DNA from: Genypterus blacodes
Lineage: Eukaryota
NCBI RefSeq assembly: GCF_046128005.1
Contig: NW_027466835.1
Location: 4,686,430-4,750,429, forward strand
Direction: 5' to 3'
Length of the DNA stretch: 64,000 bases
This document shows, piece by piece, positions 1,130 to 63,855 of this stretch; position 1 is the first letter of the stretch; each line of letters opens with the position of its first letter. The position numbers and the translations under genes are program-made. Below the pieces are notes generated by a model, which did not search any database, was not told the origin of the DNA, and worked only from the letters and a program-made list of their open reading frames with translations.

Positions 1130-1376
1130 TCGTCAAGAAGAGGCGGAAGTTCCTTCTTAGAGTCGCTGGTTTGAGGCGGTTCGTGGTAGCGAGCTGCTAA
1201 GAGCGACGAGGCGACGGTGCGGAGTCGCTGTGCTGAACGATCACGCGTGTTTCTACACCGATTTGCTACGCGCTCAGATTTAAACCATCGGTAATCGAGT
1301 GTAAGTTTAATCGTTGTGTTTTTTTGGCTATAGCCGTCGAGTTCTAAACTGCTTTCATTTTGGTCAAGGCCTCAAG
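1130..1376 (+). promoter_or_regulatory. srsf2: CpG-rich srsf2 proximal promoter / 5'UTR
   Basis: Dense CpG content (gaggcggaagttcc...gcgacgaggcgacggtgcggagtcgctg...cacgcgtg...ctacgcgctc) immediately upstream of the srsf2 ATG, in contrast to the AT-rich sequence at 700-1000. Confidence 0.55.
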
Positions 1377-1747
1377 ATGAGCGCCATGGCTTTCGGAAGG
1401 CCTCCGCCCAATGTCGACGGCATGACTTCCTTAAAAGTGGATAACCTTACTTATCGAACAACTCCCGAAACCCTGAGACGAGTGTTCGAAAAGTATGGCC
1501 GGGTAGGCGACGTTTACATCCCGCGGGATCGTAACTCGAAAGATAGCCGGGGCTTCGCCTTTGTGCGTTTCCACGACAAACGTGACGCTGAGGACGCAAT
1601 GGACGCCATGGACGGCGCGCTGCTGGATGGACGCGAGTTGCGGGTCCAGATGGCCCGGTACGGCAGACCCCCAGACTCCTACTACAGCGGGGGTCGGCGC
1701 GGCGGACCCCCTCGGCGGTACTCGGGCCATGGTCGTCGAAGCAGAAG
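1377..1747 (+). CDS. srsf2: srsf2 coding exon 1 (serine/arginine-rich splicing factor 2, RRM)
   Basis: ATG at 1377. Translation [123 protein letters not shown] is near-identical to the human SRSF2 RRM. Exon ends AG|gtaaga (donor 1748), phase 2. Confidence 0.9.
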
Positions 1748-2221
1748 GTAAGAACGACCACGTTGGACGATAACTGCGTTTCGCTTGTACGCAGCCGCCA
1801 TTAAACGGTGAAATGCTAATTCATTTCAGAACCCAAACTACTTTTTTTTAAATTTCAATGGCGGTCCTGTTGGGATCTCGCGTTTTGATAATTTGCGCAC
1901 TACATATTCTCCCCTCCCCCCACAGCCACATCAATTCTAGCCGCCATTCAGTTGTCTCTATCTGCCAGTGTGCTTTACTGGGACCATGTGATTAAGGGGT
2001 TAATGATAAGTTATGAGGCTTTAAGGAAAGTTCCAATTGTTTGTTTTTTGCACATAACCGCCTTCTTAGCCCTAGTTAAATCTCTGCAAGATTACTTTGT
2101 CCTCTTTATCAGAAAAGCAGCAAGTTTTATTATCCTGAAATGCCACGAAGAACCTTGACTTTTTTAAAATTGTACAAATACAATAACTCAATGCACTGAA
2201 TGTATTCAGCCATTCCCCCAG

Positions 2222-7425: not shown

Positions 7426-8313
7426 GTAACTGTCAATGTTGCAAGCAACCACCGATCTTTACTGTGATGTAGCTGCTACGCGAGCTAACGCTTCACTGTG
7501 TTTGTGCAGCTGGTCACGTAGGCAGCTCGACCCCTAATGTGCCGCTCTGCTCCTTTATGGCCACCATTGCGTACAAGACTTGGAAGCAAATACGTTGTTT
7601 AATATTTCAATATGACTTGTAGAGCACATTTGAACACTTATCCTTTATTATCCAAACATGTGACGTTCACCCAACGCAATACCACAAATCCCCAAGTGAA
7701 AACAAACTTCATCATCATTCTTCCTAATTAAGACTTTTCCCATATTTAGATTTAGATTCTATTGGAAGATATGAAGTAAATAGAAACATTTTAAATTCAT
7801 TGTGTTTTAGTGATTTGCCAGGCCAGCCTTTTACTTAACAGCACATCCCAATTGATCAGGAACGGTATTGGGTAACGTCACTCTGGTGTGAAATCACAAT
7901 TAAAGCTCATATTTATACCACAAATGAGCTCTAGGCTGCCCATCTACCACATGCAGCTTCTCAATTCACAGACACGTTCAGTTGTTACTCATAAATATGT
8001 TCAGTATCTCGTTTTAGCAGAAGGATTTTGTTCCTTTTAGCTTTTTGTAGTCAACCATTCTGATGCTTAGCTGCAGCTACAGGCAAAACTGAAGCCATCT
8101 AAGTAGACTAGATGATGTAGATTGCATGAGCATGGTTTAGCATTTTGCACACAATTCTCTAATATATGATATATTTCAAATGAATGTTGAATTGTGATCA
8201 GCTGTCATCATTTAGCTGTGGTACTGTGTGGTGCTCCCATTCTGTTACGTTGTCCCTTGATGTCAGATGTACACATCCTTTGCTTTGTGCACTGATATAT
8301 GCTTTGTTACCAG

Positions 8314-8702
8314 GACAACGTTGAGCGCGTAGATACTCTGCATCTCTCCCCTGAAGAGTTCATCCGGCGATTTGAGCGACCGTACAAGCCCGTTGTCCTG
8401 GCGAATTCCCAGGAAAGCTGGCCTGCCCGAGAAAAATGGACTATGGAACGCCTCAAGCGCAAGTACCGCAATCAGAAGTTCAAGTGTGGGGAAGACAACG
8501 ACGGTTACTCGGTTAAGATGAAGATGAAGTACTATGTGGAGTACTTGGAATCGACAAGGGACGACAGCCCTCTGTACATTTTTGACAGCAGCTATGGTGA
8601 GCACGCTAAGCGCCGTAAGCTGCTGGAGGACTACCAGGTGCCCGTCTACTTCCGGGACGATCTGTTCCAGTTTGCAGGCGAGAAACGGAGACCTCCTTAC
8701 AG
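8314..8702 (+). CDS. jmjd6: jmjd6 coding exon 2
   Basis: Acceptor ttgttaccag|GAC. Encodes [129 protein letters not shown](R), with >85% identity to human. Donor AG|gtttgg, phase 2. Confidence 0.9.
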
Positions 8703-8828
8703 GTTTGGTTTAGTCATTATAACCCTTTCGTATAGATCAAACAGCACACAACTGTGGCTATTAGCAATGGGATTAAAACAGATACTCTGTAAGATATCGG
8801 AGCATGTTAGATACAATGATGACAGTGA

Positions 8829-9137
<309 letters not shown>

Positions 9138-11200: not shown

Positions 11201-13983
11201 CCTCCGGCCACCGTCCACCCTCGCCCAGCGGTGACTCCTTTACTAATGCACAGAGAAACAACTTTAACTGCTTTTAGGTTTTGTTGTAATTTGGTGGGGT
11301 CCCTGAAGGAGTGCATCTGGTGGTACTGCCCCCTGTCTTTACAGAGGAGATGGCTGCCACTGAGCTTTGAGATTAGTGGAGGATCCTCTGGGATGTGGAG
11401 ACCTGCCACCACTGTGCTTCTCTACATGAAAGAAATGCATTATATCTCTCTTGTGCTCCGATGCAGAGGGTTAAATCATCGTGAAATGCCCCAAGCTGCT
11501 TTCACTAATCTGAGTCTGTGGGGGAAAAGTTGGCTGTGTTTATTTTAAAGGGCATCCTTACCTGTGTAATGGAGCTGTGACACATTCAGCCACCATAGAA
11601 TGTTTGCAAGGTATTTTTAGTGTTGTATCACTACAGGTGTTCATGAGCAGCCAGGTGTCCACGATATAATCTTTATTTAGGTAAAAAATTCTATCAAAAT
11701 TCAAGTCTCCTGTGGGATCGACTGGTCTGTCCAGCAACTGTCCTCAGCTTACGCTTCTTGTCCTTAATATTCAAAATGAAATTCACCACCTGTGTGGTAT
11801 TTTTGCACTCAGTTCTGCATGAAACACCACTTTGGTGTTTTCTTCTTTCTGTTATTTCATATAGTTTCCTCTGTTTTTCTCCTTTGGAAGAGAAATGAAT
11901 GCCAGAGCTGAATCTCAGTGAGTGTCGATCAAGTAGAATAGTGAATTATCCACACGTGGGGGAAACATAGTAATTCCTATTTATTCTGCCTGCTGTAGGT
12001 GTAACATACTGTATTAGACACAGGTGACTCCGGGAGAAATTGCAGTAATCAGTAGTCTCAGCTGGATGTTCACAAGCTCGGCCTTAAGGAGAGAAAATGA
12101 TCCATGTGGCTGCTTTGGTAGACTTTGATCTTCTCAGGTGATCATGTTTGACTTATTTCTCCAGCAACATTGCCAATGTTTGCCATTTTGACTTTCCTGA
12201 TGTTCTGCCTGGCTGGTGACATACGCTGCAAATGAGATAAACCTGTCCTGTCCTGAGGTAGGAGGTAGGCCTGCTAAATGTTGAGTCACACTGATTTTGT
12301 ACTTTTAACTCCAATCATAACATCTGACAGTAGAGGGCGCTACATTCACCAGAATGCACTACTGGACCTTTAGCTTGTACTGTTTACATTGTGACGACTT
12401 CATTAAAGCTTAGTCAGAAAGAAGAGCGGGCATGTCGGAAAGGGAGCAGAGTTTCAAACCCTTCATTCAGGTTCTGCCTTGTGCGTCCTCTCGATTTAAC
12501 TCAAAGTGATTATGTTCTTGATAAACATAACAGTTGGTGTCAAAATGGAAAAAGCTGTGATGCTTTACTTTTCAATGTTAATCATGTTTTAAGATGAAGT
12601 AAACTGACTCCAAGGACTGTGGCTGTTAGGCAGATTGTTGATTAACATTGTTTTGTTCTATGTTAAACATGGAGTTGACAGGATTCCTGCTTTCTATTTT
12701 CTACAAGATCATTTCTGACAACATTAATTGCTGTATGTTTATCTGTGCAGTACCTGTTGCTTTGACAAAAGTGCCTATGAAGTACCATTGACCACGTTGT
12801 TGGCCTGTGAGGTGTGTTAGTGTGACCGACTGCAGGGGAGGTTCTCTATTTGTGTTAGATCACAGGGTTTGGTGTTTTTAACATGTTCTGATCTGGTTTA
12901 AAGGCGTTAAGCACCGTCACGCTCCCTGAGGTCGGTCACACGGTGCCTTCGATCTGCCTCACTGAAGGCTGCATTGGGGCTTTGTCTCTGTGGGTGAAAG
13001 GGTTCCTGTCCTCATATCCTCCATCATCTGAATTGATCCTTGTTGAGGCGCAATTATTTTTCTTCTTCTACAACCACAAGATTCTGATAATGAATTGTGG
13101 TTGGTGGTGCAGGTTTGAAAGTCAGATGTGTTAATCCACAATAGATGAGAAATGGATAAACCTCTTACAATGTGAAATTTTGGAAACTGAGTTTAATATG
13201 GAAGAAATTCTTCTTGCAATGATAGTTTGTGACTCAGCTTCCCTTCACATCAGAGCAGATGTTGGAGTGAATTTAAGGAGAGGACCCTCTTCACATGTAT
13301 GAGGTGGGACACTAAGACATTATCCAGATTCCAATGAATCATGTCAATCTGTTGATGGAATAAATAAAATCTTTTCTATGACCAACAAAAATCTACAATC
13401 TATACTTTTTCATTTTACCTGCACAGGTGTAATATATGAATTCAATGTGATTACATGGAACCAAAATCTGTCCAGAAGAAACATGAGATCTCCACACCGC
13501 TGAAACATTAGGAAGTTTTTTTTTCCAGATTGATTTATTTTATAAGTCAAAGAAGCTAAGAAAATAAGTGATCAGCAACAGGCATGATGGTAGTCTATAA
13601 AGTGCTGCCTCTCCTTCAGCAGGTTGTATTGGTGTGCATACCCACACATACGCACGCGCACTCACCAATTATAGAAGCCATGAAATAATATAACAAGGAT
13701 AAGATAAGATTCAAGAAAAAGTATCGTTTTCTAAATTAACCGGAAGTGATATCTAACTTTTGACAAAAGCTTTTATTTTGACAGCTGCAGACGGAAATGG
13801 CACGTGCTTATAAGTTGAAGCGGACGGCGGCTCAGTCAGCCTGTTAAATCAGATTGGGACGGTGTGGGATGCAGCTCAGTGTGTGTGGCTCTGCAGCTTG
13901 ACACACGCACAGACACACATTGTCCTCAAAAACTAACTTCAACGTTTAGTTTTGACTTGGTAGAATCTTTAACATAATAAAAC

Positions 13984-14259
13984 ATGGAGCTTGACCCGAC
14001 TGTCATCATCCCCGCGCTTCTCTTCACGGCTGTTGCCGTTTATTTCGCTTCGTCACTCCTGAACAAGAAGCCCGACGACGGCGCGGCGAAGAAGAAGAAG
14101 CCGAAGGTGGGTTATGGAGACGACATCCCTCCGTCCAGAGCCCTGGCACCTGCACCCGTACTTTCCCCGACTCCTGCACCTCTATCCCCGGTAGTGGAGG
14201 ACGTCGGAACCGCGGAGAAGATCCAAGAAGTCGAGAAGAGCCCAGAACCACAGATTGAG
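13984..14259 (+). CDS. mxra7: mxra7-like coding exon 1 (N-terminal signal/TM segment plus Pro-rich region)
   Basis: ATG at 13984. Encodes MELDPTVIIPALLFTAVAVYFASSLLNKKPDD...SPEPQIE with a hydrophobic N-terminus. Donor GAG|gttagt. Assigned to mxra7 by its downstream exons and its position directly downstream of jmjd6, as in human 17q25. Confidence 0.65.
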
Positions 14260-16134
14260 GTTAGTAATTATCAATTTGTTTTTATTAATTGGCTAATTGG
14301 CTACTGGACGTCAAATGTCGCAACCAATACACATAAGTTACCAGAGCCCAAATTGTTGATTAAGATACTTATTTCACTGACCAACTAGTTTGCCTCATCA
14401 ATAAATTGTCTGCATGTTTGGCTAAATGACACAACTGGAAATGAAACAATTAAGTCACAATTAATAAGGTTCACAATTAATTAGTGTATTTCTTACTGTG
14501 ACGCAACACAAATGTCCCTTTTGGATGGTTTATGGTTTATTCCAACAATAAGTCACCCATTGGTCTGTGTGTGTGTATTCAGCGCATGTCTGTTTTGAAT
14601 ATATGGCTCATAAGTGACATTGCCTTAGCTAAGATATGAGGAGTAATTAAGCGTACCTGACACCCATATATAGTCACCATCTCTCCCCCCTTGCAAAACC
14701 TCATTCTTCTGAGCTCATTTGAATTTTGCAAACGTTGCAGAATCTTTATGAAAATGTGGAACTGTTCAGCTGCAATCAAATCCTTCCATCCCCGTCCCCC
14801 ATCCAGTCTTAGCACCTATCACTAATGTGCTTTCAAATATAGCCAACAGTGATAGAATTGTGTTGTATAAATGAACACTGCAGGGAGATAAAAGCAGAGG
14901 CTGTAATCCTTGCATGTACCTGGGATCCTTCACAAACGCACATGCATGCAAACATACAAACGTACTTCTTAACTTGGTCTGTCTGCCTCTGTTAGCAGGA
15001 TGTCTGAGAAAGTTATTGATGGATTAGTCTTGTTGTGCAGGTTGGACGTGATCAAGAGAAGAATCCATGTCATTTTGATACTGGTGGGCTTGTAAATAAC
15101 TTTTGAACATAGAATACCATAGAATCCATCTGCATTGGTTCATAAAGGCCCCACTCCTACTAGATTGTCCTGCTAAATTTCATCACTAAGTGTCGAAGCT
15201 GTTATTGGAGGACTGTTGTGCATTGGTGGAGGTATGAAGTCTCTGAGTGCCTTCTAGTTTGAAAAGTGACCATTGATTGGTCTAATGTGATTTGGTTCTA
15301 TTTGGGCTGCAGCCGTGATTAGATGTGAAAGCCTGCTCAGACTGGCACGGGAAGCGGGCTGTGATGGCAGCGATGGAGAGCCGGAAGCAGAGGCAGCAGC
15401 AGTTGCTCTCCTCTGTCAGCCTCAGCAGGGTTGTGGGTCCATCTCCAGGGGTCACGTTGCACATTCACCTGCTGCTTGTTCCATCTTTGCCAACACCTTT
15501 TCTCCACCTCCAGCCCTGTCAGAGGCCGTTAAAGCTCTCTGGCTAAAGACGCTGTAACACGAGAGACATGCATGTCGCAAACATGCACCTCCCTCTATAT
15601 TTGGCGAGGAACCTATAGCCTATATTTACACACACTGTATGTCGGTGTTCATGGCTCAGTCACATGTCTGAAATCGACTCTTGTGCTTTAGGAGTGGGTG
15701 TGACACGTCCACACCCGTACATGTGAGCTCTAAGAACTGTGAAACCTGCTCGGTGTTATATCATCCTGCTGACTGGGGCAGTATAGGCAGGTCCCTCAGC
15801 ACTGTATGGGAACAGTGTGCGCCGTTATAGTCTCAGATTTGGAATGTCTTCATACTTTATAATCACTCTCAGGTTGAGCTTTTGGGTGGAGCTCTATGAA
15901 CCAGGTTTTGATTGGAAACTCGTGGTGATATTTACAAACTGACACTTGACAACATGGCCATAAAACAAGTTGAAGCTATCCTCGTAAATATTGTATTAGA
16001 ATTGGAATCAATGATTTAATAACAAGTCATCAGAGTCTTTCTACCATCACACAGGCACATGGACAACAATGCTCGCAAAACTTAAAGCTTAAAGTATCAC
16101 AAATCTGGTTTCAGCCAGATATAAACCTGCCCAG

Positions 16135-32027: not shown

Positions 32028-32190
32028 TTGTTCGCTCCACTCTGGCCCTGCTCAACGGCGCGGCCAGCAGTCGCCTCTTTGACCGGCGCTCGCCCGGCCA
32101 GTGTGTGCGCTGTGCTGTGGTCGGTAACGGAGGAATCCTCAAAGGATCCAGACAGGGGAAAGACATCGACAGCCATGACTTTGTGTTCAG
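32028..32190 (+). CDS. st6galnac2: st6galnac2 coding exon 4 (sialylmotif L)
   Basis: Acceptor ttctcttcccag|TT. Encodes [54 protein letters not shown](R); compare human VIASTLSLLNGSESAKLF...[30 protein letters not shown]. Donor AG|gtgagt. Confidence 0.88.
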
Positions 32191-32434
32191 GTGAGTGAGG
32201 TTTTATGAATGCTGAGGTCAGGGGTTTAAATCCCCTCCCTCCAGCCCCACCGCCCTCAAAGGACAAGAAACAGGTGGGCTGCTTTAGGTAAACATTCAGG
32301 CTCAATGAATGCAATTTAATGTGTATCCACTCATCTCAAATGTCAAAATGAAACAGTATGTAAGGGTTCAAATCATTCACTTCATGTCATGAGTCCCTGT
32401 CTGATTATAATTGTTCACGTGAACTGGGCCATAG

Positions 32435-32573
32435 AGTCAACGGGGCTTTGACAAAGGGCTTTGAAGAAGACGTGGGGACGAAGATCTCCTTCTACGGTTT
32501 CACCACAAACACGATGAAGCACGCGCTGCTGCTGTACAAGAAGGACGGCTTCACCCAGATCCCACAGGCCGCG
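32435..32573 (+). CDS. st6galnac2: st6galnac2 coding exon 5
   Basis: Acceptor gggccatag|A. Encodes (R)[46 protein letters not shown]; compare human [44 protein letters not shown]. Donor GCG|gtgaga. Confidence 0.85.
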
Positions 32574-32667
32574 GTGAGACTATGACACGCCCCTCGCCTC
32601 CATGACATTCTTCCTGTGTCACAGCTCTGCGTGTTTAAGAGCTCTCTCTGCTTCGTCACATCTGCAG

Positions 32668-32771
32668 GACATACGATACATCTTCATCCCGACAGGCTTG
32701 CGAGATTACGCAATGCTGGCGGCGGCCGTTCGCGGTCAGAGGGTGAAGACGGGGCTGGACGCTGGAGACAG
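32668..32771 (+). CDS. st6galnac2: st6galnac2 coding exon 6
   Basis: Acceptor cacatctgcag|GAC. Encodes DIRYIFIPTGLRDYAMLAAAVRGQRVKTGLDAGD(R); compare human [35 protein letters not shown]. Donor AG|gtgagg. Confidence 0.85.
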
Positions 32772-33170
32772 GTGAGGGATCCGTCCTAAGCTCACATGTG
32801 CTCAGTACTTTGATTATTTGCTTGTGCTGGGTTTAAGGGAAAATAAAGGGACATTACACTGGACAGCCAGTTTCTATATATTAAAAACTTCTTTCAAACT
32901 TTGGATCTGCACTTAATTAATCTCTGTTACCCATGACAACCACAATCTGCTGTTGAATCTGCTATAAAAGTGAAGATTAAAGGAATAGTAGTCCTGTAAT
33001 TTGAATCACAGCCTCTAGGTGGCAGTGTAGCCTCAATTCAGTCAGGATTTACAGCGCAAGTACTTTGTGTTGTATATTTTTGAGAATCAATACTTCTTCT
33101 TCTCTTTGGTTGCTGGTTTAAGTTTTCACTCTGTTTCTGTTTGTGTTTGTCATTATTATGTAACCAACAG

Positions 33171-33251
33171 GCCCTGGAGGTATTTTGGCCACAAACCTGC
33201 TAAGAACTTCAAGATTCTTCACCCTGAGTTTATTGCATACGTGACAAAAAG
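33171..33251 (+). CDS. st6galnac2: st6galnac2 coding exon 7
   Basis: Acceptor gtaaccaacag|G. Encodes (R)PWRYFGHKPAKNFKILHPEFIAYVTK; compare human [29 protein letters not shown]. Donor AG|gtgaag. Confidence 0.85.
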
Positions 33252-33319
33252 GTGAAGGAGTGCCGTGTGTATGCTGTATGTTTGTGTTTTTATTCACTAA
33301 CTCATTATGCATTTCTCAG

Positions 33320-33422
33320 TTTCTTGCAGTCGCCCATGCTGAGGTACAAAGGCACCCAGTCCCTGTACATGCCGAGCACCGGAGCCTTGATGCTGATGGC
33401 GGCCTTGCATTCGTGTGACCAG
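33320..33422 (+). CDS. st6galnac2: st6galnac2 coding exon 8 (sialylmotif S region)
   Basis: Acceptor catttctcag|T; the nearer tcttgcag acceptor creates an in-frame stop. Encodes (S)[34 protein letters not shown]; compare human [33 protein letters not shown]. Donor CAG|gtcaga. Confidence 0.85.
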
Positions 33423-33581
33423 GTCAGAAACAAAAAGGAGGGTCGCCTATGAGCTCATGAGCAAAAACATTACACTGGAAAATCACAAAAACCTGAAGAA
33501 AATGCTTTTAGAAAACACAGTCACACTTTCCATTCAAACACATCAGCTGGACGCTTGTGATACATTTGATCATTTCACGTC

Positions 33582-33582
<1 letters not shown>

Positions 33583-33613
<31 letters not shown>
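33583..33613. repeat. (GAT)10 trinucleotide repeat ending 14 nt upstream of the st6galnac2 last-exon acceptor
   Basis: ctgatgatgatgatgatgatgatgatgatgatggtgttctactgtag|GTT. Confidence 0.95.
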
Positions 33614-33627
33614 GTGTTCTACTGTAG

Positions 33628-33807
33628 GTTTCCGCTTACGGCTTCATCACCTCGAACTACGCAGACTTCTCGGACCACTACTACGACTCCGTGTGGATGC
33701 CGCTTCGATTCTTCGCCAACCACGACATGCGGATGGAGAGCCAGCTGTGGCAGGCGCTTGACCACTGGAAAACCATGAAGTTGTACCAGAGGAAGGGGAG
33801 CAGCTGA
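33628..33807 (+). CDS. st6galnac2: st6galnac2 terminal coding exon, stop TGA 33805-33807
   Basis: Acceptor ttctactgtag|GTT. Encodes [59 protein letters not shown]; compare human [55 protein letters not shown]. The nine exons total 1134 nt, 377 aa. Confidence 0.88.
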
Positions 33808-33908: not shown

Positions 33909-35449
33909 GATGCGTTTAACTGGATTGAGATGATTTCTGCATCGGTTACAAACAAATAACTAACTTTAAAGGGAAAATATGGCCGAACATTTTAGGTTTC
34001 TCCTTAATCCCCAATGCAAAAAGATTCATTTACTAAACTGCACTTTCTAATGTCTGACTTGGACAATATATAAGAGTAAATGTGATACTATATGTGGTTG
34101 TAAGTCTGTGGTTATTCACAGCTTTTTTCTTTGTTTTGTAAGCTTTGTTTTGAACCGTGACTTTACTTTCTGTTGTATTTACCTTTTATGTGACTAAATA
34201 TTTGCCACTTGTGTTGTTTTAGTAAATGTTTAATGTTTGAGCTTTTTGTGTGGGACAATTCTTTATCTGTACTTTTCCAGGTTGCTGTTTTACTGCTTGT
34301 TAACAAAACCTGAGTGTTGTCTAAAGAGCGCGGTGAGCTTTGGCTTTGTGACAGCTCCTTTGTCATTAAGGTCTCACACTGACATTAAAGGCCTTCATAC
34401 TGTGTAAAACGATGCTGTGGTGTTCTCGGGATCAGCAACCTCTTTGATCATAAGAAGAAGTCTTATCTGTCCTCTGAGGGCAGGTGCGCTCACGCTCCTC
34501 ATCACTCTCTTTCCTCTTCTTTCTGTTTCAAGCTGCTCAGCTGGGTCACGGCTCTAACGGGCTGAAGGCCACTCGGAGCTTTTTTTCTTTTTTTTACCTT
34601 GATGTCCTCTGAAGTCCATTCAATCTGACGCCTTTTGTGCGGGTGAAATCTGGAGTTCTCTGAGCCTTTGTGTCGTGCTTGTCCAAGGACGTGCCGGCAG
34701 CCACAAGAAAGAGCGCGACACGCAGCTTTGATCGCCTCTCAACTCGGTCTGTCCACATGTCCTCCCACATCTCACAGGTTTAATGTCCTGATGGAGTGGT
34801 GAAGGTTCAGTTGAGGTCACATGAATGAGGGCCAATGGTCCTCACATGTAATACAGGTGTGTTTACATAAATGTTTTATGTTTGGATTTGCTCTCATTGT
34901 AAAAGACTAACATCAACCTGTGGTGGACAAAATATATTTTATATACTATACTATATTATATTATAAATAATAAAATATATTGTAAGACTGCAGTCTGACA
35001 AAACAATCAACATGATTGTTTTGGTTATGTTAAAATCAACAAAATGGTGTTAATCGGATCTCAAATATATTTAAGAAGTCATTTTATAATCGGTATAATC
35101 AGAAAAGTTCGTGTAGTGGGCGATACAACCGGATAACACGATTCTTCACAATAAAAGCACGACTGCGAATCTCAAATACATGAACATACGGGTATTGAAT
35201 GAGATAATAATGTTCAGAATGTTTTTATATCCAAAAATTCGACATGTGTTATTACGTTTCCATAATCATATGTGTATACGAAATCTGTTGAATTGAATTA
35301 CTTAAAATCATGAAATCGAGTCGTGGTGGAAATTAAACAAATATGATGCGTTAAAATGGTTCCTAAAATAACAATTTTCAAATGGAATCGCCTTGGAGGC
35401 AAATATTTACTTTAATATACTTAAGATTTGAAAGAGGTGGCAATCCCTT

Positions 35450-36320
35450 GCCAGACGTTTTATTTTGAAGGTCTTCCATGGAAGCTGCATGTTTTGTATG
35501 TTATGTTAACTTGTTGCTGACAAGCTGGCGTATTGTAGATTCGGTGACAGTGTAGCGGGGAATGGCACTCACAGCGAGGGGAACGAAGCGTCATAACAGC
35601 CGTACTAAGTAGTAAAAACGCGTTTCCTTCATCTAATTTGTGTCTGTGCGGGGATGAGACAAAGTAAAGACAGCAACAGGCGCGAAAAAACACATTTTAC
35701 TGAACTTTTCCTGGACTTTTTGGAGTATCGACGCAGTGACACCGAGGACTTTGGGGATTTTGCTGCGGACTGCCAGCTTGCTGAGCGACACCTCGGGAGC
35801 AGGGACTTTCTGTCACGTTTGGGTCCATATCACGGTAAGCGTGGCGCGTTACTAGACTTGTGTTTACACGGTGACAGGCCCGGTGGTGCGCGTTGCCAAA
35901 CTTCAGTACAAAGGTCCTCGCTCGCCAGTTTGCGAGCCTGGATCACACCGCGATGTGGCCAGCGTGCGGTGCGGTGCGGGGAGATCTCCACCTCCTCCGC
36001 CGAACTCCCTCCACGGTTCGCCCTTAGTGGACTCATTACTCTAGGAAGTTCGGTTCAACCAGCACGATGGCAAACTTTTACTATGTGCACTAACAAGCCT
36101 TGAGTTCGGCGCAGGTAAACCTCTCTAACTAGCTCTGTATTGTAGCAGAGTGCAGGTAAAGCTGGAGGATTGGATCAGTGTTCGTCACCGCCCACAGGCG
36201 CGCGGGTTCGAAGAATCAACCATTTGTTTACATTAAAGGTTGTTTCGAGATCCGAGTAGCGCCGAACTACAGAACGAGTCGTGTTTACGTCTTGTGCGCG
36301 TTTATCTGTAATGGTTTCAC
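35450..36320. promoter_or_regulatory. Orphan CpG island with no assignable coding exon
   Basis: About 0.9 kb of very high CpG density (cgcgttactag, ggtggtgcgcgttgcc, gcgtgcggtgcggtgcgg, cgcgcgggttcgaag). Plus-strand GT donors follow open stretches at 35827 (atcacg|gtaagc) and ~36114 (gcgcag|gtaaac). No protein similarity recognised. Confidence 0.45.
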
Positions 36321-37417
36321 GTTATTTTATTATTAATACATTATTATTTGTCTTTATTTAATTTTTCTAAATGAATTTTGGAGTGACACTTGCATTGTTT
36401 GAGTTTATCATTTTCAGAATGTACACAATAAAGATAATACTGCCAATCAGCAATACCTTTAACTTAAACAGCATAAACTAAAAAATGTAATCACACACCA
36501 TGAAATAGTGATTTCAGAAAAGGCAGAAGAGATATTTACATGGTGAATATGTAACACAACTGTTTTGATTTTAGTTCTAATGTAAAAGTAATAATTTCAA
36601 TATAAATATCCAACAGTTTTATTGACCCCACAGCTTGGTGCTTTTATGCCCCTCAGGGTAAAATATTTACATTCTTACCCTCAAGGGCAATATTATTTTG
36701 CGTTATTGATCTTTTCCTTTAATTTCCCAAACATGCTGCTGAGGTGGAAGTCCGGGAAGCTGCTTCAAAACATTGGAATGTGCAATACCAACAACAAAGC
36801 CATCTGAGGGGGATTTGTTATTATAAAACTTCAGAACAGAGTGAATATGTAGATCAGAGCTGCACTGTAGAAAAATGAAATGCAAACACGTCCAAACAGC
36901 TTCACGCCTCATCACAACTCTGGCATTCCAGTCTGTGGAGTTACTATGAGGAGATTTTCTCACAGTAAGAAGCTGCATTTTCAAGAATCTTGTGCTAATA
37001 CAAGGCATAGATTCAAAATTCAACTTCCTCCAGCTAATAAAGTGATTGTAGAATATGATCAATACAATGCAATTGATATTCTCTCGTGTATTACACATTT
37101 AGACCAGTAGACCAAGAGACGACTCACTGCAAGGGCTGCAGCTTCCAAACAAAACAATCCTGGTAAGTGTCCATCACGAGTTCCCAGAGTCCAAAGTTTT
37201 ATGCTTCACATTTCATATTTACTTAAGGATTCTAGAATCAGCAAAGGTTTGATAATTTGATTGATGGAGTGACAGTTTTAGCTCTCGTCCCTGCTGCCTC
37301 AAACTACAGGGTTCTGTGTTCTCCCTGTTTGTCATCAGTGCGGCCTTGCAGAGAGGAAGAAAAGCGGGACGTGATGAGTGTTAATGGGAATGACAGCTCT
37401 GCTTACACCCTGTTCTC

Positions 37418-37470
37418 CTGTGTGTGTGTGTGTGTGTCTGTGTGTGTCTGTGTGTGTGTATGTGTGCGTG
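37418..37470. repeat. compound (GT)n microsatellite
   Basis: tgtgtgtgtgtgtgtgtctgtgtgtgtctgtgtgtgtgtatgtgtgcgtg. Confidence 0.9.
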
Positions 37471-39279
37471 CTGTGCTCTGGCTGCCTGGTTATGTAACGA
37501 AACAAGTTGTAACCAAGAACAAAACTGAGCAGGGGTGCAAGCCAGCAGTCATCCCAGCTCAGCTCAGTGATCCAGCTGCATACTGTACACTGAGCATTCC
37601 CCAAAACAGCCTCTGTGTTTACACAGCAACACATTTCTTTAGCTCTGGCCCCATCGCTTGTTACATGCAGGCAGTTTGTGAAGTTAGAACAGTAAAGTAA
37701 ACCCGAAACGCAGGGACAGGGAGGTGTCAGTAGGTAGTGGCAAGGCACCCAAAACTACCAACCGTGACCGTGCAGAGAATGAAGTAGAAGAAGAATAAAG
37801 GCCGATCCGCTGAAGCAAACTTCAACCTTATGTTACAAGGCTCTGAGGAAGACAACATTTGGTCCTGCATTCTGCTTCATGAACGCTCAACAATAGCAGG
37901 AACTTTTCCTGACTGGAGTGCAAACGCAAAGCTCTGACAAACACGAAATGTCCCTCGATGACACAACTGTGGCAACTTCCCTCCTCATACATCGTCAAGT
38001 TGTGTTTGGCCACTGAGCTGGAAGAGTTTAAGTGTCGCGTTCCACTGTAGGAACAAAGTCGATGCGTAGCCAAAGCGAGCATGTAATCCATCACGGAGGC
38101 CCGAGGGCTGCAAACAGGGCCGATCAGCCGCGTGAGTGGATGCAGGTCGGTCAACACAGAGCGAGTCAGGTGATTCCCCCGGCTTATAATACCTCATTAT
38201 AATCCGTTTAACTGCTCGCCTGGTGCATCATTATGTAGCTGAGATGAAAACTAGAAGAACGACACCAACTCGCCTGCTGCAGTTGCATCAATATTCACGC
38301 GGCACAGGAAACACACAAGTGGATCCTTCACGCGCCATTGGCCTTCGAAGGCCCGGTTAGCTTTGATTAAACTGTACTCTCCACTCCTCAGGTTAAATGT
38401 CTCATAGAAGTAGAGGAATATAATATTGCACACCCCAGCACCTCTGAGGGGGTGTGTGTGAACTTGCCTATCTGTGTGTTTGGGTCCATGTTTTCAGCTT
38501 GTTATCCTTCCCCTTGGGCTACGGTTATGTCACATCAGAAGGAATGAAAACACCGTAGCGCTCGCGTGTGCAAGCCAGTGTCGCACCCCAAACAACACAA
38601 ACCAAGTGCAGCAACATCGACGGCTGTCAATTCAGCCGATCAGCTTGTTCTGATTAACTTGTCGCTGACATCAGTAATTTGCCCGATTTGCCTCCCTGTG
38701 TTGATACTTGCTCGGTTTCACCACGTTTTTCTGGTTTAAACAATGCGATCCCTCCCCACGTTTTGCAATCAGGCTTTCCAGACGTGTTTGCTCCCAATTT
38801 GCGGTCTGGGGAAAAACCTAAGAAGAAAACCTAGACACCCACACACACACCTATAAACTCATACTGTAAGTATGTCGTCAATGCCCCATGCTGCAGATTC
38901 TCGACTTCAAACACATATTTAACCCTTCATGAGATCTCCAAGCATGAAAAGGAAAGAAGTCTATTTCCACTATAGAGCAACTATACCAACATGTAACTGC
39001 AACCATTTGACCCAATAGAATCAATATATGTTGTATTTAAAGTGATATGGATTGTCAGTGACCTAGTTCAGATGTAATTTCCAGAAAATCATTACATATT
39101 GATAAGTAGTTGGAATAATTACCATTCAGAGTCGGATATGTGGTTAATCTGTATCTTTGTCCTAACGAGAGGAAGTACGACAGGCTTAGATGCAGATTTG
39201 TACTTGACCAATCCTTACGGCGATTGTAAACTGATACACAATGTCGTTCTGATTATGGTGCGACGTCACCGCCTGTGGG

Positions 39280-40492
39280 GAGTTGGGCTTAGGTGAGGTT
39301 GATGACTAATCTGGGTGTAACGCTGTCGAGGGGTCAACCCTCCCCAGCTCTCTCCTATGGGCCGGGGAGGGTTTGTCTTGGTGCTCGCAGAACTTGTTAA
39401 TTTCGTCCATAAGTATCGACCTCAATCTCTTGGGGCTATCATATCAAATCCCTCCAGAACATCGTTACTTCCACCACTAAAAGTTCTTTTATCCTTTCTA
39501 AGGTTTCGTCAGCGTATTGTTCCGCCCTCTGCGTTTCTCTTCAGAAGATTTTTGCTCGTATCATTGCCAGCATTAACTTTTTCACCCCTGCGATTCTCCC
39601 GAGATAAGAGCCGAATGTCTAAAAAATTAGTGTGTGAGGAAGACGAGGCGGTCTGGCCGATGCTTTTGTGTGTGTTTTGAGTGCACCGGGGGTCTTTTCA
39701 GGGTTTTATTACCTCTCTCTCTCTCCCTCTGATAGTGGGGAGGGGTTTCTTTTTTGGAAAAGTTCTGGCATGCAAGGAACGGCGCCAAACTCTATTTGTT
39801 CTGGCCCAGTTTGTAGGATTAATGGTGGTGAATCCATCCAATTACCGTTGAACTGGAGGTTATTTGAAACGCGGCTAAATCCTGTTGCTCTCCTCGCGGT
39901 TGTTGGTTGTGGTTAGAAGATCTCTGGGTCCTCCGTCTCCAGCACCTTTTGCTTAAGTTTCACTTCCATTTACTTTCTGCCCAACAGTGTGTGTGTGTTT
40001 GTGTCTGTGTGTGTTCACCCGAGTGCTTGTGCGGTTTTACCCACCATTGAGTCTGGAATATCGTAATAGATTAACTGGTGTGTTTTTCTCGTTTTTCTTC
40101 TCTAACTCTCAGGCTCTGCTCTGCTGGTTCAGATGGCTCCAACCCCCTGTTAGGGTACTGACCACAGTACCTACATCAAGACCCCCTTCTCTCCAGACCC
40201 ATCAACAGTACCTCTGTATGGCTCCAACCCCCCCTGGAAGCTCCTGGAAATAACATCACTTTGGAAATAAAGACTGAAAAGAAGAAAAGTTGGACAAGAA
40301 ATTTGAACAGCACAATAGATTTTCTGTCTCTCGGAGCTCAGAGTCGAGGTCGTAGATTGAGCAGCAGACCGCCAAGGGGGTGGAGGAGCGGAGGGTCTCA
40401 CCTGAGGCAGGTTGATGTCTCCATTTCTCAGCATGTTGCTCTGAGGAGGCACCGGGGTTTACGCAAAGGTTGTTTCAACACAAAGCAGGACC
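39280..40492 (+). promoter_or_regulatory. caskin2: CpG- and GC-rich region upstream of the caskin2-like ATG (putative promoter/5'UTR)
   Basis: GC-rich, CpG-containing sequence (ggccggggagggtt..., gacgaggcggtctggccgatgc, cgaggtcgtag..gaccgccaagggggtggaggagcggagggtc) directly upstream of the first coding exon. Confidence 0.4.
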
Positions 40493-40586
40493 ATGGGAAA
40501 GGAACAGGATCTTCTCCAGGCGGTCAAGAGCGGAGACTTGACCTCCACCCAGAAGCTGCTGTCCAAGCTCAAAGCCAACAGAAACA
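40493..40586 (+). CDS. caskin2: First coding exon of a caskin-family gene (caskin2-like ankyrin/SAM scaffold). The remaining exons were not located in the window.
   Basis: ATG in strong Kozak context (ggaccATGG). Encodes MGKEQDLLQAVKSGDLTSTQKLLSKLKANRN, then donor A|gtaagt, phase 1. Compare human CASKIN2 [32 protein letters not shown] and CASKIN1 MGKEQELVQAVK. A CpG-rich region lies upstream. Confidence 0.55.
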
Positions 40587-40865
40587 GTAAGTCGCCTTGT
40601 GGGGATGCTAAACGCTGTTTGAACCTGTGTGTTTTATGGTGCAGGCAAACACCACACGTCTATAAGCCTGACCAGACAGGTTGTTGATGAATGAAACGCT
40701 TCTCTGTCTCTTTGGTCATTTAACTCTCAGAGACACGCTGTCGCATTTTTGTGTGTAGTGGCACAAATGCTCTTTTATTGGATTTAGAGGCGTACTTTGT
40801 TTACGAAAGTGGAGTATGTGAGGCGATCCCGCTGAGAGCGATAGTGATCCCCATGTTGAGTGATT

Positions 40866-40867
<2 letters not shown>

Positions 40868-40902
<35 letters not shown>
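40868..40902. repeat. (GT)n microsatellite in the caskin2-like first intron
   Basis: (gt)15 then gcgcgc. Confidence 0.95.
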
Positions 40903-40906
<4 letters not shown>

Positions 40907-41588
40907 GAATAGAGCTGCTCGGTGGCTGTGTGTTCAGAACGTGACTGCAGAAAGACACTGAGACCCTTAAGACCTGCGGATTAGCCCGGTCCAGCTCCAG
41001 ACTGGCCCTCTGCTGATGAACTCAGGAGGACCAGCAACACCGAGAGCCAAACCTCAAACCTCAAACCTCCTGCCTGCCGTGGCTTCAAATATTAGCGGTT
41101 CTGCCCAATAAACTATGGATTCAGACTAGAGTCTTCCTTAAGAAGGCAATCCCTCATTGGTTGGGTTCACTTGAAAACAGCAATTCTATTAGAAAAGCCA
41201 TGAATTCTGTCTTAGTTAATTCTTCCTTAACCCGGTTACTTAAACCAGGATACTGCTGAATGCTAAGTGTGGAATAATGAGGTAAAAGCACGTAGAAGAG
41301 TCAGGTCAGAGAGTGTCAGGTCTCGTAATTTTACACAAGCAAGTTCACGACTCAAATCTGTGAACTATGCAGTGTAATACAAACTGCAACCAACTGGTGC
41401 AAATGGCCGGTGAGGACTGAGCGCTTTAGAATGTGCAGAATTTTACTATTTTGGCACGAAACTGGTGGAATTCTCCTCAGCTCAGATGTAAATATTGGAT
41501 TTCTAGGATCGATTACGCTCTTTTTTCTGCCCCCTTCCCTTGGGATGAGAGTCTGTTGCTACTGTTTGATGGGAGGTGTTTGATGGCC

Positions 41589-42369: not shown

Positions 42370-45300
42370 GCTCGCCCTCTCTCCCTGTGAATCTCTATGA
42401 CTAATTGCTTGGTCTCTCCCCGTCTCCGTCCTCGCAGCAGAGATGGTGCCTGACAGTTGTTTTTGTTTGACGTTCATGTGACCAAGAAAGGGGCTGTGCA
42501 GGGGCCCCAGGCCAGCAGGAGGTCAGGCTTAATCACAGCGATAACCCGTCACCCCCCGGCCTATTTGGGGCACGCAGCCAGTGTCCAGTGTCTTTTTTGG
42601 TTCTGATCCTTTAGTGATAAGAGAGCGAGTGTCCTGAGATAATGATTTGGGGTGTTGGGGGGGGACACACACTGTTGTCATTTGCATTACCTTTGTTTGT
42701 CAAACATGGACAGGTCTTGTATCCCTTAGATGTCTTTCAACCCTAGCTAGTTGAAGTTTGTGTTAGAAAAGATCAAAAATATACATTTATCGTGACTCTA
42801 CCTCGTGTTTTGTATGAAGTATATAATATAGAAATCCTTGAAATCTAATAAACCCAACAAGCCTTTTGAAAAGTTAACAGCACCAGCAGCAGAAACTGCT
42901 TCTCCTGTTCTCGTCATATCAGAACTTTGGAGAGTCAAATAAAAGTGGACTGCGACAGGGAAACACCTGGAAAATCAAACAAACGGCAGACAGCTCAGAC
43001 AGTAAAATCCCTCTCATAAACAGAGTGGAAGAATACAAGGAAGAGGAGCGCTCACTCTCTGTTCTTAAGGCCGCAAAATTACAGAGGAAGTCACAAGGAG
43101 CAGTGCAAAGAAAAGAATCTGAAAATATGATCCAACCAGATCAGTCAGTGCATGTACCAGACGAGGTGGTGGCAGGTGTGACGGGGGGGTGAAGGCCGCA
43201 GTAAACGTCGTAAAGTGTCCAGGCAGGAGGTCGTCGTTCCCCTGCGACGAAGCTGGAGCTGCCCCGGCCAGCTGACGGGCCTGTTTTGTCTGTCTTTAGT
43301 CCCTGAGGGGCTTCCTGCAGGCTGTCAGATTACCCCAGCACCCATTGTTGTTCACCTCACCCCACCCAATTTATCACATTATATTTTACTCGAGAGCTTT
43401 TTGGCTATTGTTATGGACAACACCGGCCTATTAAATGGCCAGGGACAATCAGTAACCCTCCACCCCTCCTGCTGCCGTCAGATCGCCCCACCAGATAGGG
43501 AAGGATACTTTTGGGCAAATTGCCCACGTGGACTGATATTGGGAAGCTTTTACTCGTTTACAGCACCCAGATGTTGCACGGTCAGGATTAGAAGCGATTG
43601 CAGTGTGAGGGCAGAAGAGTTATCAGATTTACTGGAATCTCATTGTCATACCGAAGCTATTGAGGCACACGGTACAGCATTAGGTTTCCACAGGTCCCTC
43701 TATGGAATTACAACTGAAAGTTACTAATTGAATAACCTCACCACCAAAGCATTCTTTGGAAAAGTGAATCAAAAGCTTTATTTGGTGTTATTGAGACTAT
43801 GTAGAGCAACACACAGTGGAGAATTAAGCCAAACTCAAGATGAAAGTACCTGTAACTCGGCCAAAGTGGCTATAGGGAGTGCCTCTCAGACCCTTTTTGT
43901 CTAAGATATTAAACTGAATAAATCTTGCCTCATTAAAGTTTCTTGCTGGTTTATCAGAAGCAAAAGCTGAAGAACACATTGAGCAGACAATGCCAGAGAA
44001 GGTGGCAGTGATTTAAACGTATATTTAAACCACAAACGATTGCAAGTGAAAGCCTCCTTGGTGGATGACATCGCCATCTGTCTTTTTTAGACAAAAGTGT
44101 GCCGCAGGAGGCATTATTATTGACCCAATGGAGTGATGTTCTCCGTTGAAGCTCATCAGCGCTCCATTATTGGACCCTCATAAAACTGTCGTCCCGCTAT
44201 GAAAAGCGATGCCGTTTTGAAAGCCTCCAGACAAAATGCAAAGCGGCGTGGCGGAGGCTGTGCAGGCCACAGTGGAGGGAGCAGCTGAGGGGACGGGCTG
44301 ACTAACGCCCACCCTGGATATCTGCAGTCTCTTCACTCACTCTTCTTTGCATGTTTTATTCATGAGTTTGGGTTCATACCAAAGCCCACCCAATCACCCC
44401 CCACACAAAATCTTCCCTCTTCCCTGCCTGCGCCTCTTTGGCTCTGTTGGCAGCGCTCCTCCATGAGCTCCTCACTCTCTCAGATCTCCGTGACCTCCAC
44501 CTTACTTCTGCTTTGTTGACTGCTGTTGTGCGCACTCGCCCTCACTGGTTTGTATCAAAATGTATTTTTGCTTTTCCTGCTGACAAGCAGGGAATAACTG
44601 AGTCACTTGACATCCTCAGTATGGAACTGGAACAAACTCTGAGATTCACACCCACACTTTCCCATTCACACTATTAAAGAAATTCAGAAAAAGGAAATTG
44701 CCTTTACATAATATGTGCTTTTCTCTGGGTGAAGGTCAAGAAGAAAGATCTCACTTGCTTCATGAAGTGTAGGAGACATTTTCTACAACGTTGCCCCACT
44801 GCTGCCCGTCCTGCCCTTTTCTCATAGCAAAACAAAAACCGTCACAGCGAAGGAAAATTTCCACTCTCTTTTAGACGAGAAGGTGTTAAAACCTTTAAGA
44901 CAGTCCGTGAAATTCTATTTCTGCTAGTATTTGCCTGTCAACTCCACTGTTGGTGTGCGAGATGTTTAATTGGTCCACTAAACAGACAGGTCCCCCTATA
45001 GCCTTTAAAGGAGGGCAGTCATACCTAGTCAGACAGGGAAAACAAAGCTCTTGTGTGTCTGTTGGGAAAGGGGCCCCTCAGGACCTCTGGCTGTCATGGG
45101 TTTAGATCAGTATGTGACGTAACAGGAAAGAGAGGAAAGGCTTAAGTGGAAGTTGGAAGGCTAAGCAAAGGTTATCCTGACTCAAGAGCGCTTTGAAAAA
45201 GGATGCAAGTATTTCATATCTGTATTTCTGAATGGAGCTCCAGGCCCTTCAGTCTGTAATCAGGCTATGTAGAGACTACAGGAAGCAGACTGCTGGAGTG

Positions 45301-48300: not shown

Positions 48301-48773
48301 GCGAGTCCCACAGGACTCTGGTCGGCCCTGGCCTCCAGGAAAGGTCTGGTCTGGGAAAAAAATGACAGAGTGAGACACTTTGTCAGGGCAATTAGTCCGT
48401 AAAAGCCCCCTGTTTTCAACATGTTTTTAATGACTGCTTTTGTGTGTGAGGGTAATCTTTAAAGTAAATAAAGAGGCTGTAATTTTAGAAGAATAACACT
48501 CTGAGAGTGGGAAAATGGACACATTGGCGTACACATGAAAACCTTATGAAGTGATCAGATCTTTTGTGTCTTCTTGCATATTATCTTGTTATCTAATGGA
48601 GTTTTGATTCTGATAATCTTTCCTACCTGCCCAAGTTTCATCAAATTTGGCAGCTTTTTGAGATATCCTGCTAACAATCACACAAACAGGACCAGTAACA
48701 CACCATTGTAAGCGTAGATGATGTGGTCATTATTCTGCACAGAGAACACAGAATGAAAACTGTAAAGAAGTCG

Positions 48774-48846
48774 CGAGCCAGCCAGGAGTCGAACCTGGAA
48801 TCTTCTGATCCGTAGTCAGACGCGTTATCCATTGCGCCACTGGCCC
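48774..48846 (-). tRNA. tRNA-Arg (anticodon ACG), 73 nt
   Basis: Minus-strand sequence GGGCCAGTGGCGCAATGGATAACGCGTCTGACTACGGATCAGAAGATTCCAGGTTCGACTCCTGGCTGGCTCG. It has a 7-bp acceptor stem, anticodon loop CTACGGA, and T-arm GGTTCGACTCC, and is identical to the canonical vertebrate tRNA-Arg-ACG as remembered. An oligo-T run (ACAGTTTTCATT) lies within ~15 nt downstream. Confidence 0.9.
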
Positions 48847-63773: not shown

Positions 63774-63855
63774 CGTCACGAACAGGATTCGAACCTGTGC
63801 GGGGAAACCCCATTGGATTTCGAGTCCAACGCCTTAACCTCTCGGCCACCGTGAC
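63774..63855 (-). tRNA. tRNA-Ser (anticodon CGA), 82 nt with long variable arm
   Basis: Minus-strand sequence GTCACGGTGGCCGAGAGGTTAAGGCGTTGGACTCGAAATCCAATGGGGTTTCCCCGCACAGGTTCGAATCCTGTTCGTGACG. It has a 7-bp acceptor stem (one G-U), anticodon loop CTCGAAA, long variable arm, and T-loop GGTTCGAATCC. The terminator TGTTTTGCG...TGTTTTTG follows immediately downstream. Confidence 0.88.

Follow-up and report, generated by a model that had tools for sequence, protein, structure and literature searches.

What does a CpG island encode or control when it lies between two genes on the same strand and holds no recognizable coding frame? The question is raised by a 64,000-nt stretch of the genome of the pink cusk-eel, Genypterus blacodes (hereafter, the window), in which positions 35450 to 36320 form such an island. 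On the plus strand of this 64-kb window, the order is srsf2, jmjd6, mxra7, st6galnac2, the island, and caskin2. The open reading frames (ORFs) at 1311 to 1748 (+) and 8296 to 8853 (+) are recognizable as srsf2 and jmjd6, respectively, and the ORF at 13981 to 14385 (+) is mxra7-like; srsf2, jmjd6, mxra7-like, and then st6galnac2 is also the order in the human 17q25 block. The C-terminal exons of st6galnac2 (32102 to 33807, +) show 99% identity to XP_075998844.1 (st6galnac2, Genypterus blacodes). Downstream of the caskin2 ATG exon, the next exon does not begin before 61229, and the intron between them spans 20.6 kb.

Beyond the st6galnac2 stop codon, a block at 34036 to 34752 (+) retains 62 to 67% identity with Centroberyx, Myripristis, and Polymixia. 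It presumably represents a long conserved st6galnac2 3' untranslated region (UTR) that ends near the AATAAA at 34969. This hexamer is the last st6galnac2 poly(A) signal and is located just 5' of the domain in which CpGs are retained.

The island as a whole contains 60 CpGs, with an observed/expected ratio (o/e) of 1.07 and a GC content of 0.51. Its 781-bp core, from 35520 to 36300, contains 59 CpGs at an o/e of 1.10 and a GC content of 0.525, compared to a window background o/e of 0.54, and qualifies as a CpG island (length, >200 bp; GC, ≥0.5; CpG o/e, ≥0.6). A preliminary description of this DNA had singled it out as the strongest island outside annotated promoters. This agrees with our ranking in 400-bp windows, where it comes second and is exceeded only by 1401 to 1800, the 5' end of srsf2. 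The adjoining flank at 35000 to 35450 is AT rich (GC, 0.24 to 0.41), yet its CpG o/e is 1.4 to 1.8, so the CpG-retaining domain reaches approximately 450 bp further 5' than a GC-based call. The edges of this domain are sharp, with no CpG at all in 34800 to 35000 and in 36400 to 36700. Based on CpG retention and these boundaries, the domain from 35000 to 36320 is probably unmethylated in vivo.

The island is single copy, matching only itself in the 64-kb window, and its matches in other loci are found at or near the syntenic position. Repeat structure within it is limited to trivial short tandem repeats. On these grounds, a transposon or repeat origin was rejected.

For comparison, orthologous loci were fetched through the st6galnac2 proteins of Myripristis (L001), Polymixia (L002), Toxotes (L005), Morone (L006), Centroberyx (L007), Hypomesus (L008), and Puntigrus (L009). 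In all seven, the caskin ATG exon lies 3.9 to 7.7 kb downstream of st6galnac2 on the same strand, and no gene is called in the intervening DNA. In Myripristis, Polymixia, Toxotes, and Puntigrus, caskin2 is annotated as the next gene after st6galnac2, and the caskin ATG exon was placed 3' of st6galnac2 by tblastn/blastn in Centroberyx, Morone, and Hypomesus. The gene ranges used for these other fishes cover coding sequence only, and UTR exons are invisible in them. Morone saxatilis shows two peculiarities at this locus. Its st6galnac2 range (L006, 10001 to 11672) measures 1672 nt for a 367-amino-acid product, versus 4.5 to 9.7 kb in the other fishes, and could reflect either a copy with few introns or a quirk of the annotation. 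In addition, the caskin gene is uncalled in this assembly, despite the presence of its ATG exon.

Alignment to Centroberyx and Myripristis reveals a conserved module in the 5' part of the island (Table 1). Several of its motifs are invariant or nearly so, including GTTTTATTTTGAA (35457 to 35469), GTGACAGTGTAGCGGGGAATGGCACTCACAGCGAGGGG (35544 to 35581), TTTTGGAGTATC (35718 to 35729), and ACTGCCA (35769 to 35775). A three-species nhmmer profile retrieved the module on the plus strand, in syntenic position, from three fishes that were left out of profile building: Polymixia (E = 5e-41), Toxotes (E = 1e-28), and Morone (E = 2e-19). By sequence, the module is undetectable in Hypomesus and Puntigrus. 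At the position equivalent to that of the Genypterus island, Puntigrus tetrazona nevertheless has an island of its own (L009, 19851 to 20150), with a GC content of 0.73 and 49 CpGs in 300 bp, approximately 4 kb upstream of the caskin ATG.

TABLE 1 Features of the st6galnac2-caskin2 interval and of the downstream caskin2 introns (a slash within a motif marks the splice boundary)
Feature	Position	Strand	Basis or remark
st6galnac2 stop codon	33805-33807	+	
CpG-retaining domain	35000-36320	.	100-bp CpG profile; core 35520-36300
Conserved module, likely promoter/non-coding exon 1 of caskin2 (~380 nt)	35457-35834	+	Alignments, nhmmer profile
149-codon ORF, chance open frame	35654-36103	+	Not coding
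Putative 5' splice site ACG/GTAAGC	35832-35840	+	Last exon base 35834, G of GT 35835
Predicted caskin2 intron 1 (4278 nt)	35835-40112	+	Conserved donor and conserved acceptor
Second donor-like site CAG/GTAAAC (G at 36115)	36112-36120	+	98.3rd percentile, rough matrix
Conserved non-coding element C, enhancer-like	37287-37647	.	Cores TGTCATCAATG, TGTTAATGGGAATGACAGCT, TTATGTAAT
Conserved non-coding element D	37927-38123	.	Invariant CTGGAAGAGTTTAAGT
Conserved non-coding element E, forkhead-like	38281-38399	.	CAATATTTACAC
Predicted 3' splice site at the start of the caskin2 ATG exon	40071-40112	+	Branch-point-like TTAAC 40071-40075, pyrimidine tract, CAG/G
caskin2 exon 2	40113-40586	+	380-nt leader and first 94 coding nt; ATG 40493; donor ACA/GTAAGT
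uORF MSPFLSMLL-stop in the caskin2 leader	40415-40444	+	Conserved
caskin2 ATG	40493	+	
tRNA-Arg(ACG)	48773-48846	-	Inside the 20.6-kb caskin2 intron 3' of the ATG exon
tRNA-Ser(CGA)	63774-63855	-	In the next caskin2 intron, opposite strand to caskin2

The module ends at a candidate 5' splice site. The preliminary description had recognized its motif correctly (CACG/gtaagcg) and had placed it at 35826/35827, 8 nt away from its actual position at 35834/35835. Across six acanthomorph species, the site reads ACG/GTAAGC, AAG/GTAAGT, AAG/GTAAGT, GAG/GTAAGC, AAG/GTAAGT, and AAG/GTGAGT. It thus conforms to GGTRAG in all six, the sole change within this motif being a consensus-preserving A to G at +3, while the flanking sequence carries indels. 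CpG enrichment accompanies the orthologous donor in each of the six species (o/e, 0.80 to 1.08, versus backgrounds of 0.44 to 0.63). In terms of quality, the Genypterus donor falls in the 99.4th percentile of plus-strand GT sites in the window, as judged by a rough matrix. Chance would supply about 0.34 sites of this quality in 871 bp, and the score by itself is therefore not significant. When ranked among the 287 to 473 GT sites between the st6galnac2 stop and the caskin ATG, the donor comes first in five of the six species and is fourth of 465 in Genypterus. The donor and acceptor matrices are approximations that serve ranking only, and the putative donor function is argued from conservation.

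The second donor-like site, for which the earlier position (GCAG/gtaaac) proved accurate, fares differently as a splice site: it is replaced by CATATA in Centroberyx and by CGTATC in Myripristis, and it is lineage specific and probably unused. On the minus strand, no donor of comparable quality is found within the island. Likewise, the st6galnac2-caskin2 interval contains no other conserved donor and no other conserved CpG island. A CpG-rich patch at 37951 to 38350, with GTGAGT at 38132, was considered as a rival promoter and discarded, as its core is a Genypterus-specific insertion between elements D and E. The CpG-rich stretch itself (approximately 38090 to 38280) is missing from Centroberyx, Myripristis, and Polymixia and hence is not a conserved promoter. 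A proximal promoter at approximately 39250 to 39650 was also rejected, since this segment has a counterpart only in Centroberyx and, in part, in Myripristis and Polymixia, and the percomorph intervals offer no space for it.

At the other end of the interval, the acceptor at 40112/40113 (tttttctcgtttttcttctctaactctcag/G) outscores all others between the donor and the caskin2 ATG. It belongs to the 99.9th percentile of the window, where 4 of 4115 sites are at least as good. The preliminary description had expected an acceptor upstream of 40493; the strong conserved site precedes the ATG by 380 nt rather than lying just before it. Together with TTAAC, approximately 37 to 41 nt upstream, and a pyrimidine tract, it is kept in eight acanthomorph sequences, including the Logan contig L010, and the cyprinid Puntigrus shares the acceptor along with both of these features. 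The aligned acceptor is the top-scoring one in Toxotes and Myripristis and not the top-scoring one in Centroberyx, Polymixia, and Morone. A candidate closer to the start codon, at 40431/40432 (...GATGTCTCC....CTCAG/CATG...), 61 nt 5' of the ATG, was rejected because the conserved sequence there is that of an upstream ORF (uORF) and a far stronger conserved acceptor is available at 40113. A conserved acceptor upstream of the ATG requires an upstream exon.

RNA-derived sequence from a distant, otophysan-like fish (Logan contig L003, SRR32360492) bears on the extent of the ATG exon. In this contig, the first two coding introns are correctly spliced out, and a leader of at least 330 nt is contiguous with the ATG exon, collinear with the Puntigrus genome, and marked by motifs shared with acanthomorphs. 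This leader indicates that the ATG exon extends far upstream. The match between the L003 leader and the Puntigrus genome starts approximately 24 nt downstream of the aligned acceptor and includes none of the intronic motif.

The same contig has an unusual structure. L003 begins with a Nextera adapter, and within its nucleotides 1 to 962, downstream caskin ankyrin-repeat exons are joined, at approximately nt 311, to the 5' ATG-exon leader. This junction is either an assembly chimera or a back-splice (circRNA) near the exon 2 acceptor. Owing to the adapter start and the joining to downstream ankyrin exons, L003 was set aside as evidence for the caskin2 5' junction. Two further Logan contigs, L004 and L010, were discarded as transcripts, as both are genomic.

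The caskin2 leader also carries a short conserved uORF. In five species, it follows the consensus MS(P/L)xLSM(L/R)L-stop and comprises 9 to 11 codons, with length changes of whole codons; Morone has a different, 20-codon form. A nested core of three to five codons, from ATG to stop, is found in nine of nine fishes, including Hypomesus and Puntigrus, and ends 48 to 70 nt 5' of the main ATG. The whole-codon indels of the uORF, combined with the L003 leader, indicate that the segment from 40113 to 40492 behaves as an mRNA leader. The uORF may exert translational control on caskin2.

Between the conserved donor and the conserved acceptor lies the predicted first intron of caskin2, which would measure 2.1 to 3.9 kb in Toxotes and Myripristis (2.1 kb in Toxotes). 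It harbors three non-coding elements, C, D, and E, which are conserved in all species compared, and more strongly than the island. Element C is present in seven of seven sequences, with up to 88% identity in its core. The three elements were dismissed as internal exons because they have no conserved AG...GT boundaries. They contain MEIS/PBX/homeobox- and forkhead-like motifs. Such cores in elements that lack exon boundaries give them the appearance of intronic enhancers, and they probably serve caskin2 as intron 1 enhancers.

Taken together, the interval offers a single conserved, top-ranked donor, which is attached to a conserved module in the only conserved island, and an acceptor that needs an exon. 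Read most parsimoniously, the island would be the CpG-island promoter of caskin2 and contain its non-coding exon 1. We consider this reading, in which both the initiation and the 35834-to-40113 join are inferred from genomic sequence, to be likely, with good confidence. Transcription on the plus strand would start inside the conserved module, roughly between 35480 and 35700, and exon 1 would end at 35834 with the donor ACG/GTAAGC. Removal of the 4278-nt intron, with its three enhancer-like elements, would then join exon 1 to exon 2 at 40113, followed by the 380-nt leader with its short uORF and the start codon at 40493. A transcription start site (TSS) upstream of 35654 is computed to yield a spliced leader with a 96-codon uORF that overlaps the caskin2 ATG, which would be unfavorable for translation. 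The main TSS is therefore expected downstream of 35654. A distal caskin2 promoter with a 5' UTR exon had been among the original suggestions, and the conserved donor and acceptor speak for it. The qualifier "alternative" does not hold, as no other conserved promoter-like island or donor is present in the interval. The term "orphan" is a misnomer for an island that, on this reading, serves the adjacent caskin2. Nothing relevant on the promoter or first exon of Caskin2 turned up in the literature searched.

Other readings of the island were weighed against the caskin2 promoter. The island could drive an independent spliced long non-coding RNA (lncRNA), conserved in acanthomorphs, with exon 1 ending at 35834, while another first exon feeds caskin2 exon 2. 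The conserved module and donor indicate that some spliced transcript starts here and not which one, and the interval does contain good acceptor-like sites, among them those at 39545, 39736, and 38392. However, none of the conserved blocks has conserved internal exon boundaries, and no second conserved donor or island is at hand to serve the caskin2 acceptor. Moreover, in Toxotes the donor-acceptor distance is 2.1 kb, most of which is filled by the three conserved elements. The lncRNA model needs two unseen features, versus none for the caskin2 model, and we regard it as unlikely. A similarly low probability is assigned to the conserved exon belonging to a separate acanthomorph spliced non-coding RNA or, in a milder version, being shared between such an RNA and caskin2. 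If the exon were shared, caskin2 output would be controlled by a distal promoter together with the leader uORF of 9 to 11 codons. It is still less probable, and in our view very unlikely, that the island is a CpG-rich element regulating caskin2 or st6galnac2 from a distance, either as an orphan island or as a poised enhancer, that no stable spliced RNA is made, and that GGTRAG is a protein-binding motif. According to a section heading of PMC3583005, distal regulatory elements can be marked by non-methylated islands between genes, and the neighboring elements C to E are clearly enhancer-like. Against this, the one change that the donor has undergone, A to G at +3, preserves the splice consensus, no other donor of the interval scores higher in five of six species, and the conserved acceptor upstream of the ATG would still be left without a partner exon.

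The readings that invoke a different gene product are harder to sustain. The preliminary description had also envisaged the promoter of an unannotated small gene. Such a gene could encode a protein from the ORF at 35654 to 36103 or from its first 60 codons spliced onward. The preliminary description had given the coordinates of this ORF correctly and had recognized no similarity in it. Consistent with this, no match was obtained among 5.8 billion proteins in a word-indexed search, among 1.84 billion cluster representatives in an exhaustive phmmer search, or in Pfam, and tblastn of the ORF against five orthologous loci gave nothing at the syntenic position. Its 149 codons exceed what most shuffles produce, with 20 of 2000 reaching at least this length. 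However, non-coding DNA of the window holds ORFs of similar length, at 43215 to 43727 (170 amino acids) and 37257 to 37700 (147 amino acids). A comparison of the frame across fishes argues against coding as well: the orthologous segments contain stops in all three frames and one to four frameshifting indels, and the ATG is missing in two of the five species. Judged from these sequence data, the ORF is not a gene, and a small-protein gene is hardly credible here. Only slightly more room is left for a promoter of an SNHG16-like small-RNA host gene, a reading that we hold to be highly improbable. It draws only on the lack of a coding frame and on a synteny analogy, human SNHG16 being a snoRNA host gene that adjoins ST6GALNAC2. 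Against it, no snoRNA, scaRNA, or microRNA family exceeded the Rfam gathering scores anywhere in the window, and a search of 34500 to 41000 with permissive filters gave chance-level matches only (E ≥ 0.3, scores far below the gathering cutoffs). SNORD1/SNHG16-like RNA was undetectable in the window, where the only Rfam matches are two tRNAs, both far downstream and on the minus strand (Table 1).

The caskin2 promoter reading has several implications. An apparently orphan island most likely marks where a known gene for a neuronal scaffold begins, with an ordinary promoter and 5' UTR exon conserved across acanthomorphs and no new gene involved. The likely boundaries of caskin2 exon 1 and exon 2 in Genypterus are thereby set at 35834 and 40113. 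The three deeply conserved intronic elements and the conserved uORF become candidate regulators of fish caskin2. In more general terms, gene tables restricted to coding sequence make ordinary 5' UTR exons resemble orphan islands. The significance of the island lies mainly in annotation.

In mammals, exon 1 of CASKIN2 is non-coding and lies in a CpG island shared head to head with TSEN54, and the ATG lies in exon 2. The arrangement proposed for Genypterus resembles the mammalian one in its untranslated exon 1 within a CpG island and in an ATG located in the second exon, which encodes MG(K/R)EQDL. It differs in the upstream neighbor, which in fish is st6galnac2 in tandem rather than a divergent TSEN54. 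In addition, the Genypterus island is without a comparable minus-strand donor. With orphan CpG islands and lncRNA promoters, the Genypterus island shares an intergenic location by coding-sequence annotation, CpG richness, and the lack of a coding frame. In contrast to orphan islands, it has a natural partner in the conserved acceptor of neighboring caskin2.

The closest likeness is to the CpG-island or non-methylated-island promoters of vertebrates. In PMC3583005, non-methylated islands are described as marking orthologous promoters across vertebrates, fish included. Similar to such promoters, the Genypterus island has a CpG o/e of approximately 1.1 over roughly 0.8 to 1.3 kb and occupies the same place with respect to the orthologous gene in all fishes compared. 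It further shares with them a conserved donor a few hundred nucleotides into the island, an ATG in exon 2, and conserved elements in the first intron. Measured against these promoters, nothing about the island is unusual: its GC content is modest (0.51 to 0.525) and its domain is partly AT rich, both of which are typical of fish islands according to PMC3583005.
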